The translations under genes were made by a program, and so were the position numbers. From the NCBI RefSeq assembly GCF_006345805.1, contig NW_021829081.1, forward strand, positions 1 through 6,978: a stretch of DNA of 6,978 nucleotides, in the 5' to 3' direction. The notes below the pieces were generated by a model. That model did not search any database, was not told the DNA's origin, and was given only the letters and a program-made list of their open reading frames with translations. This document shows positions 3,366-6,978 of the stretch, in pieces. Position 1 is the stretch's first letter. Each line of letters starts with the position of its first letter. The stretch comes from Octopus sinensis (taxonomy: Eukaryota).

Positions 3366-3525
3366 TGTCGCTACGTTCTCAGTTCAAATTCCACCAAGGT
3401 TGACTTTGCCTTTCATTTTTTCCGTGTCGATAAATTGAGTACTAGTGAAACACTGGGGTCGATATAATCGAATAGTCTCCTCCCCACAAATTTCAAGCCT
3501 TGTACCTTTAGTAGAAAGAATTATT
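3366..3525 (+). mobile_element. 5'-truncated tRNA-derived SINE (octopus-type)
   Basis: B-box-like GTTCAAATTC at 3382-3391. Core GACTTTGCCTTTCAT...GATAAATTGAGTAC...CACTGGGGTCGATATAATCGA aligns with the adjacent copy. Preceded by (ATT)n at 3337-3366. Resemblance to octopus SINEs is from recall. Confidence 0.85.
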
Positions 3526-3533
3526 TTAATTCT

Positions 3534-3768
3534 GCGGCGAAATGGCAGGTTCGTTAGCATGCACAACAAAGTGTTTAGCATCATTTCATCCGTGGTTACA
3601 TTCTGAGATCAAATTCTGTTGAAGTCGACTTTGCTTTTCATCAATTGAGGATCGATAGAGTAAGTACCAATTGAACACTGGGGTCGATGTAATCGACTTA
3701 CCCTTTCGCTCGAAATTGCTGGCCTTGTGCCAAAATTTGAAACCATTATTTTATTATTATTATTATTA
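3534..3768 (+). mobile_element. Near full-length tRNA-derived SINE with (ATT)n tail
   Basis: Head GCGGCGAAATGGCAGGTTCGTTAGC (A-box-like at 3543-3553), degenerate B box GATCAAATTC at 3607-3616, core hairpin GTCGAT-GTA-ATCGAC at 3683-3697, 3' end GGCCTTGTGCCAAAATTTGAAACC plus (ATT)n. Confidence 0.88.
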
Positions 3769-4250: not shown

Positions 4251-4354
4251 AATTATCAAAATAAGTTGTCTATATTGTTACGCAATGAAATTCTTTATTA
4301 GTGATACATATGCCACTGGGTTTACTTCAGGAATTCCTTGGTATTGATAGAGCT

Positions 4355-4710
4355 TATATAAGTAGACCAGAGACGGAACATAGAATTGACCTGTTGCTCT
4401 ATTCAAATCCACTACAATTGTTTCGACTCTTTCTGCATCTATATACCAGAAATGAGATGTACGAGAGTGTTGCATCACAGGTGTAGATTGCGACTTCTTA
4501 AGGGTCTTTCAATCAAGTAGTTCGCTCTTTCTTCTCTTCATTTCACGCGTTTAAAAGTTACCTGAGGTGGCCTGAACTTGTAATACGTCAAGATTGATTG
4601 TATAGCATCGCATGTGTGAGATACAGGTGAAGGATGAGACGAAACAATTGTAGTGGATTTGAATAAACTCTTCCGTGCATATCATTTTCTGTTTCAGATC
4701 TATTTATACA
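4355..4710. repeat. Long imperfect inverted repeat (arms 4355-4460 and 4605-4710) with a perfect 26-bp core; probable relic of hammerhead-bearing retroelement termini
   Basis: TATTCAAATCCACTACAATTGTTTCG (4400-4425) is the exact reverse complement of 4640-4665. The ungapped alignment extends both ways (hand count 74/106). Confidence 0.85.
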
Positions 4711-5965: not shown

Positions 5966-5997
5966 ACTTACCCACCTGTATCTATTTTTTTATGTTT

Positions 5998-6200
5998 TTC
6001 TTGTTTCACTCATTGGATTGCGGCCATCCTGGGGCACCGTCTTAAAAGCATTAGTCGAATATATCGACTCAAGAACTTAGGTTTTCAAAGCCTGACAATT
6101 ATTTTATCGTTATCTCTTTTTCAACCACTAGGTTATTAGGAGGAAAACATAACAACACCGCTTGTTAAGCGGTGGAGGACAAAGCAAACACAGAGAAACA
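5998..6200 (-). mobile_element. 3' half of a second, diverged octopus-type SINE family in antisense orientation
   Basis: Reverse complement of 6051-6070 (GAGTCGATATATTCGACTAA) matches the core GGGTCGATGTAATCGACTTA at 3681-3700. CTTGTTTCACTCATTGGATTGCGGCCATCCTGGGGCACCG resembles a very common octopus repeat end (recall). Confidence 0.75.
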
Positions 6201-6203
6201 CGA

Positions 6204-6367
6204 ACATACATATATAAATAATACATACACATATTTATACATGCATACACATTTATATATGCATACTCTTCTTTGTATAAATACATATACATAAATGTAT
6301 GTATATTTATTTTCTAAGTTTCTCTTTCACACACTTTCTCTCCCTTCAGCATGGTATGTGCACGTAT

Positions 6368-6401
<34 letters not shown>
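6204..6401. repeat. (CATA)n/(TA)n low-complexity tract ending in pure (TA)15 at 6371-6400
   Basis: Directly visible. Confidence 0.9.
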
Positions 6402-6405
<4 letters not shown>

Positions 6406-6978
6406 AATAATGAAGGGTGAAATTAATTAATTTGGATAATATCAATTACACCAAGTAGTCTTCGGCATGTAAAAGCCTCATTCGAGGAAAATTTAAGTAA
6501 TACTAAGCAATAAAGGGTTTAGCAACGAATTGCCTTCAATACCGAATTTAGAAATAGCAGTCAAAGAGTTATAGCTATTTCTTCTACTAAAAGGGAGATC
6601 TCAGTAAAAACAGCAATTGGAAGGCAGACAAAACAGGTAAGAGAGAATGAATTGACGGCAATCTATCATACAATTTTAATTATCTACGGACGTACGTTTC
6701 GAAATCAAGTTTTTAGGAAAGCATAAGAATTAAATATTAAATAATTCTATCTTACCAAAAACTTCTTTTCTCTTCAGCGTAGAATACTATAATCATAAAT
6801 GATTATATATTGAATTTTGAGATACTAGAAGGCACCAACTCAACTCAGTATCAGAGCGAGCTAGAACCCGCAACTAGTATCACCAAATTCAATGCGTGAA
6901 TGAAAAGATTGTGTCACCAGCCCCTTCCCCACCCGCGTGTAGCCAAAACAAGATGCTGTGGTCATCTACTGAGATAAA
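6402..6978 (-). mobile_element. Hammerhead-containing retroelement terminus (Penelope-like pLTR or retrozyme-like); probably continues beyond the window end
   Basis: Abrupt switch from (TA)n to complex sequence at 6402, an intact hammerhead, many hairpins, and no ORF in the track. Minimal type I hammerheads are an established feature of Penelope-like elements and retrozymes. No RT or GIY-YIG sequence is visible here. Confidence 0.65.
6683..6783 (-). ncRNA. Type I hammerhead ribozyme (minimal stem III, extended stem II)
   Basis: Minus strand reads UCUACG-CUGAAGA-[G...70-nt hairpin...C]-GAAA-C-GUAC-GUC^-CGUAGA. All core nucleotides are present, stem I is a perfect 6 bp, the G10.1-C11.1 pair is present, and loop 3 is palindromic. 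Predicted cleavage between + coordinates 6689 and 6688. Confidence 0.92.

Follow-up and report, generated by a model that had tools for sequence, protein, structure and literature searches.

The last 577 nucleotides of a 6,978-nucleotide stretch of Octopus sinensis DNA (the whole stretch is called the window here) probably represent nearly the whole unit of a non-LTR retrozyme, whose self-cutting transcripts would give circles of ~590 nt and which would borrow a Penelope-type reverse transcriptase (RT) and endonuclease for insertion at TA microsatellites. What the analysis establishes is a unit that closes on itself, with its hammerhead motif, its fold, the lack of an open reading frame (ORF) and, for this copy, the TA flank. 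The kind of element is already known; modestly interesting in this new member are the long helix II and an insertion end lying 287 nt past the cut site. A previous reading made from the letters alone (the sequence-only reading) had proposed a retrozyme or a non-autonomous Penelope element, and the multi-copy, non-coding, strongly folded and head-to-tail closed unit reported here bears that proposal out. The features are collected in Table 1.

A search of public sequencing runs gave 24 rows, 20 of which hold the element, from 11 studies and under seven organism labels. The contigs of four of the 20 holder runs (X1, X2, X11 and X17) were placed on 6402–6978 at 80% likeness. X1 and X2 are DNA-type; the RNA status of X11 and X17 is a guess, and no holder is recorded as RNA in the run search. 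The contigs placed numbered 4486 in X1, 1905 in X2, and 39 and 109 in the two putative RNA runs, with all 29 bins covered in every run. Summed depth in X1 and X2 ranged from 2 × 10^4 to 1.3 × 10^6 per bin, contig depth not being a copy count. As the two DNA-type runs yield variant contigs by the thousand, the element is a many-copy family, and its presence in 20 runs likewise speaks against single-copy sequence. Several single bases present in most relatives are missing from this copy, through private loss or, it may be, assembly error.

The unit closes head to tail. Contigs from one of the two DNA-type runs and from both putative RNA runs carry a joint leading from 6978 to 6402 through a 10-letter linker. 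With the letters of this copy the unit is 587 nt long, and 577 of its ~587–600 bases lie inside the window. In the DNA run X2 the joint has a depth of 266, with four linker variants listed; in X1 no joint is listed and the linker appears as a loose end. In X11 the end bins have depths of 142.5 and 134.6 and the joint contig one of 133; nearly all depth at either end therefore passes through the closure, and the closed form dominates. The X17 joints (12.8, plus 2.8 for a variant, giving 15.6) reach ~64% of the right-end depth and together ~5% of the left-end depth (297.8), to which diverged subfamilies also contribute. At 6402–6600, the subfamily that dominates X17 has only a small share in the DNA run carrying the same label (variant 6459: 81% versus 1.3%); the X17 loose ends behind 6588 are more diverged relatives, one of which could be the terminal repeat of a helper. 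The units of relatives are slightly longer, as seen in X11 pieces of 111 letters over 109, 112 over 109 and 260 over 253.

Because DNA also has the joint, its occurrence in X11 and X17 is explained equally by tandem read-through or by library DNA. Contigs separate neither a circle from tandem read-through nor one strand from the other. The longest contig piece among those listed has 293 letters, and none of the listed pieces spans two hammerheads. Excision between two hammerheads had been envisaged for this element; each element has one, and the second would be the same motif in the next unit, reached through the joint. The window ends 10 letters before a full turn, which may reflect a second TA tract or a tandem collapsed at the contig end.

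In the window the unit opens 287 nt downstream of the predicted cut site, that is, circularly permuted relative to the ribozyme cut. It abuts a pure (TA)15 with a sharp edge (6371–6400 plus one T), exactly as had been described. The last three letters of the tract (6399–6401) equal the end of the unit's own linker, a microhomology of 3 nt that places the boundary within 6399–6402. A TA run also stands before 6404 in one X17 contig (24 loose ends listed, 198 further). Together, this copy and that contig suggest a shared TA boundary and an insertion preference for TA.

Table 1. Features of the unit and its flank, with positions in the window.
Feature	Positions	Strand	Basis
(TA)15 + T tract, inferred insertion target	6371..6401		15.5 copies, 100% pure
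Retrozyme-like monomer, head-to-tail repeat unit	6402..6978	minus	joint, fold z, GC 34.8%
Hairpin domain (predicted) close to the 3' end in the RNA sense; includes the pairing of 6532-6546, in place of one with 6651-6662	6461..6546	minus	predicted fold
9-bp hairpin	6550..6582	minus	sequence and predicted fold
Long interrupted stem, 6959-6897 with 6672-6610, around the ribozyme domain	6610..6959	minus	prediction
ATTAAA of this copy; rejected as family signal	6675..6680	minus	interrupted by an extra base in relatives
Helix I, 6 bp: 6783-6778 with 6688-6683	6683..6783	minus	pair probability in circle 0.74-0.89
Core GAAA (6700-6697), helix III, GUC triplet; predicted cut 6689/6688	6689..6700	minus	sequence
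Helix II, G10.1-C11.1 closing pair (6770/6701), 70-nt arm	6701..6770	minus	fold prediction
Hammerhead core C3-A9 (CUGAAGA)	6771..6777	minus	sequence and descriptor match
8-bp hairpin just upstream of helix I	6788..6807	minus	sequence and predicted fold
Long hairpin with 18/20 inverted repeat	6809..6893	minus	sequence and predicted fold

The hammerhead that the sequence-only reading had placed in the element holds up. One complete type I motif per unit lies on the minus strand and is the sole descriptor match in the whole window; the descriptor, a custom one and not that of Rfam, matched 1 of 5000 shuffles of the region, and none of the 5000 with helix lengths as observed. The helix II arm contains 24 predicted pairs in four helices (4+10+3+7), with pair probabilities of 0.93–1.0 at the six pairs checked. 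The pairs of helix I are also predicted in the linear cleaved monomer, both ends of which this helix would keep together. Helix III, two pairs (A-U and C-G) capped by a GUAC loop, lies within an 8-nt palindrome (6697–6690). It barely forms in the monomer (p<0.05), and the duplex of the palindrome with a second copy reaches −9.8 kcal/mol. In metazoan type I motifs a weak palindromic helix III favours dimer cleavage, according to the excerpted text of PMC4209133. Helices I and II are part of the lowest-energy fold of the closed unit, with the active fold 2.4 kcal/mol higher.

Rfam gave no match in the whole window at the gathering score. With E up to 10, region 6300–6978 gave 17 matches, mostly miRNA models on the TA run, with no ribozyme among them. 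This miss is probably due to the long helix II arm; if type I hammerheads with a 70-nt arm evade Rfam even at E 10, families of this sort may escape standard screens. Motif pattern scans returned 0 and 0 matches in viral contigs, 0 and 0 in prokaryote genomes, and 0 and 1 in metagenomes. The single metagenome match (L001, 390–410) is an exact 21-mer of the 3' half of the ribozyme alone, without the upstream core, and was taken as chance. Phage blastn gave no match.

The element had been described as densely base-paired and non-coding, and both parts of the description proved correct. The minus strand of 6402–6978 folds at −157.1 kcal/mol (z −5.68), as well as which none of 100 shuffles folded; the plus strand gives z −2.55 (1 of 100 shuffles). 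The bias is stronger in 6808–6978 alone (z −5.8 minus versus −0.8 plus), and the unit closed as a circle has z −5.5 on the minus and −3.0 on the plus strand, with 0 of 40 shuffles in each case. With such a bias, an RNA fold relying on G-U pairs of the minus strand is more plausible than a plain inverted duplication. Good folding by itself is not rare in the window, as other repeats reach z ~−3.2 (the SINE-like 5990–6200) and −4.1 (4270–4700); four other stretches do not go beyond −2.1. Exact inverted repeats of at least 9 nt number three, against 0.83 ± 0.87 in shuffles (3 of 100 reach three), and those of at least 8 nt number six, against 3.2 (10 of 100). With counts this modest relative to shuffles, the short inverted repeats alone are weak evidence.

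Of the individual pairings that had been reported around the ribozyme, 6809–6828 with 6874–6893 (18/20) and 6550–6558 with 6574–6582 (9/9) were reproduced. The 9/9 match of 6788–6796 with 6799–6807 is also there, with just eight pairs possible, as the ninth would leave a 2-nt loop. The 11/12 match between 6529–6540 and 6651–6662 exists in the letters and was dropped as a feature of the element: it is missing from the predicted folds and lies at a variable spot, an extra letter standing behind 6538 in 77–100% of the depth. Its proposed competing partner, 6616–6626, matches at only 7 of 11 positions without gaps, and ten bases pair if one bulge is allowed, as read from the sequence. Likewise, the ATTAAA noted at 6680–6675 is present on the minus strand of this copy and was rejected as a poly(A)-like signal of the family, a G behind 6679 interrupting it in 58% (X1), 55% (X11), 26% (X2) and 25% (X17) of the depth.

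The longest stop-free frame in the unit has 67 codons and no Pfam match, and none of seven frames of the window matched Pfam. No frame for RT plus GIY-YIG was found in the repeating unit, which closes at ~587 nt without an ORF, and no coding frame was found beyond the 24 loose ends listed (198 further). Combining the 12 listed indels over the linear stretch rescued at best 111 codons, which 18 of 129 shuffles equalled; round the circle the best combination gave an uncalibrated 153 codons. A remnant ORF was therefore rejected, the indel-aware frames of the linear stretch being no longer than chance. A SECIS-type reading, prompted by PMC8557442, was dropped, since no frame adjoins. The bacterial promoter scan stayed at chance level and is not relevant here.

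The remainder of the window is AT-rich, microsatellite-dense and animal-type, with 54 tandem-repeat rows and several short interspersed repeats. Segments 4400–4459 and 4606–4665 form a 60-nt inverted repeat (82%), each arm of which carries the 3' half of a different hammerhead-like motif (GAAAC, a palindromic AATT loop and GUA; 4424 minus and 4641 plus). The upstream core is damaged or missing in these motifs and 4395–4500 minus folds no better than shuffles; the arrangement is reminiscent of two Penelope-type ends in inverted orientation that have since decayed. At 3372–3528 and 3597–3753, an interspersed repeat of ~157 nt, SINE-like by appearance, occurs in two neighbouring copies with 69% likeness. 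The SINE-like stretch 5990–6200 has a CA/TA-rich tail, folds at z ~−3.2 on both strands, and presumably resembles a common octopus repeat. Between microsatellites, 1798–2094 is GC-richer and exon-like, with a frame of 76 residues, a stop and 24 more, and no Pfam match. Long arrays of degenerate (CAT)n/(CGT)n/(CAC)n occupy 173–626 and 986–1359; the frames in them, up to 217 residues long and rich in His, Ser, Ile and Asp, are spurious.

Variation within the family was compared with the fold. Among 40 listed substitutions (a further 11 substitutions and 17 indels fall outside this set), 14 break a pair, against 14.6 expected. The family variants thus add nothing in support of the fold, as expected if copies are old and neutral and subfamilies are mixed. 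None of the 40 hits the 15 core positions, where the expectation is just 1.0. Compensatory change gave no signal in the same 40, the contig tables giving no haplotypes; deletions at 6710 and 6758, near-equal in X1 and X2 and compensatory-looking in helix II, are uncoupled in X11. Variant fractions correlate well between the two DNA runs (Spearman 0.85) and poorly where a putative RNA run is compared with the DNA run sharing its label (0.17 and 0.13). The mismatch is consistent with expression of selected copies, a reading weakened by the low depth, by the listing rule and by the runs coming from different individuals. Twenty variants are enriched tenfold or more in the putative RNA runs, among them eight T>C (A-to-G on the ribozyme strand) versus four A>G, counts too few for a conclusion on editing, the individuals being different as well.

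An autonomous Penelope-like retrotransposon could have left its pseudo-LTR here, 5'-truncated, with the joints coming from tandem pseudo-LTRs. The terminal repeats of such elements have type I hammerheads (PMC4209133), and the elements make partial tandems and prefer microsatellites (PMC8557442), as far as the excerpts of both papers go. The window stops at 6978, so the continuation of this copy lies outside it; summed depth declines towards 6978 in X1, X2 and X17, as expected of 5' truncation, and X17 depth at 6402–6600 is far above that through the joint. We nevertheless regard this origin as rather unlikely: nearly all X11 end depth crosses the 587-nt closure, the listed loose ends lead into no coding frame, and on the downstream side of the ribozyme the beginning of an ORF is not retained (at most 111 codons, as long in 18 of 129 shuffles). 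The 6-bp helix I and the absence of an extra base before helix II are, moreover, unlike the metazoan Penelope-like minimal motifs in the available part of PMC4209133.

A tandem repeat of satellite type that arose from a retrozyme or pseudo-LTR and now spreads by amplification at the DNA level, its ribozyme no longer relevant, would accord with the joint found in DNA and with variants that fail to protect the fold; Xenopus families with satellite-type amplification and mostly inactive dimers are described in the preprint excerpts (10.64898/2026.07.22.740005). Yet this copy is dispersed, its core is intact, its start within a TA tract is sharp and shows microhomology, its folding is biased to the ribozyme strand, and the putative RNA variant mix differs from that of DNA, on correlations that the listing rule and the individuals bias. 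We give this reading very little weight. A chance fold and motif in single-copy AT-rich DNA could point to the lack of an Rfam hammerhead match and to short inverted repeats merely two to three times the shuffle level; it is refuted by the many-copy family, the z of −5.7 and a motif found in 1 of 5000 shuffles, and its probability is close to nil.

For the retrozyme reading that we prefer, the following cycle is proposed. The minus strand would be transcribed by read-through over tandem units and cleaved at 6689/6688, once per unit. Two ribozymes pairing via the 8-nt palindrome would probably aid cleavage, a dimer step proposed because helix III is too weak alone. The new ends would be held by helix I, and a host ligase would close the ~590-nt circle. 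A Penelope-type endonuclease would nick (TA)n, and the free TAT end would pair with three RNA bases; reverse transcription would begin at an internal position of the RNA that lies 287 nt downstream of the cut, and run through the ribozyme and round the unit. An internal start of this kind would leave an insert permuted relative to the cleaved monomer, matching this copy. A Penelope-type helper is proposed on account of the TA target and of the genomic end being permuted; no helper element for the unit was found. The agreement over 3 nt could be incidental, and the template could be a tandem transcript that was never cut.

Several steps have counterparts in the excerpts available of earlier work. 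Tandem read-through, once-per-unit cleavage, ligation and a helper RT make up the retrozyme cycle (PMC7229834; PMC7761336), and the ribozyme helices of most metazoan retrozyme circles are compatible with the stable fold (Cervera and de la Pena, PMC7229834). One Penelope-like enzyme starts reverse transcription in vitro within the RNA, downstream of the hammerhead, and cuts AT-rich DNA; with the same element, priming proceeded without homology and hammerhead cleavage was dispensable in vitro (PMC11167929). Neptune and Naiad elements have a microsatellite bias (PMC8557442). Eight of nine Xenopus retrozyme dimers were without cleavage in vitro (10.64898/2026.07.22.740005).

We consider it unlikely that an abundant ~590-nt circle is copied from a fixed internal point into (TA)n, with the RNA pool altered by heavy editing of the rod or by RNA-to-RNA copying; if it were so, dispersed monomers would be direct prints of circle-templated reverse transcription, one turn each. 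The route of retrozyme circles back into the genome is still hypothetical, and a very high-copy family with a sharp end and a defined target makes the model of a Penelope helper and a circular template testable by boundary counting.

The comparison with known systems draws on the excerpts available of each cited source. Plant LTR retrozymes (via PMC7761336) share the size class of 600–1000 nt and a ribozyme-processed unit; they have a type III motif, LTRs, a primer-binding site and GC above 55%, whereas the present unit is type I with 35% GC. Naiad elements (PMC8557442) share the insertion bias for (TA)n. They are coding elements of 3.4–4.4 kb with an N-terminal endonuclease frame and no canonical hammerhead in the text available; the unit here has the full hammerhead motif and no frame.

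The pseudo-LTR hammerheads of Penelope/Poseidon, Neptune and related elements (PMC4209133, PMC11167929) are likewise type I, with a palindromic helix III and a conserved G10.1-C11.1, and have in common with the present case an insertion end downstream of the ribozyme and an AT-rich target. An autonomous Penelope-like element would carry RT plus GIY-YIG, and the unit contains a frame for neither. In PAc the insertion end lies ~85–92 nt past the cut (+26; +111 to +118; PMC11167929), compared with 287 nt here. The Penelope-type minimal hammerhead has a helix I of 4–5 bp, a helix II of 7–8 bp and an extra base between A9 and 10.1 (PMC4209133); here helix I has 6 bp, helix II is a 70-nt arm, and there is no extra base.

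No description of cephalopod retrozymes was found in the literature searched; Repbase or Dfam may already contain the family. A paper on octopus repeats assigns 6.83% of the genome to Penelope-like elements and does not contain the word ribozyme (PMC13282606). Li, Clavereau and Pollet, in a 2026 preprint (10.64898/2026.07.22.740005), argue that non-LTR retrozymes derive from Penelope-like pseudo-LTRs and are non-autonomous. Their retrozymes have units of 51–972 bp, a range that includes ~590, occur as dispersed solo monomers, and are proposed to be mobilised by Penelope-like elements. They sampled 31 vertebrates, three insects and a coral, and their supplements may list similar units. Their 'active' class has two consecutive units with the full motif, whereas the contigs here cover one ribozyme; they derive retrozymes from a parent pseudo-LTR, and none was identified for the present unit.

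The unit comes closest in kind to metazoan non-LTR retrozymes (PMC7229834). It has their type I motif with a full core, one per non-coding, head-to-tail joined unit, many copies, a length of some hundred bases and a GC content (34.8%) below 50%, as well as the weak palindromic helix III and a self-paired fold that leaves the ribozyme free. It differs in size, their repeats measuring 150–450 bp (350–390 in mussel) and this unit ~590 nt, and in its 70-nt arm in place of a short capped helix II. Circles and cleavage have been demonstrated in those retrozymes, whereas our case is built on sequence and predicted fold; the excerpts mention no TA target, and this copy is flanked by (TA)15. Following the preprint of Li et al., the two names first offered for the element, retrozyme and non-autonomous Penelope, are probably one thing.
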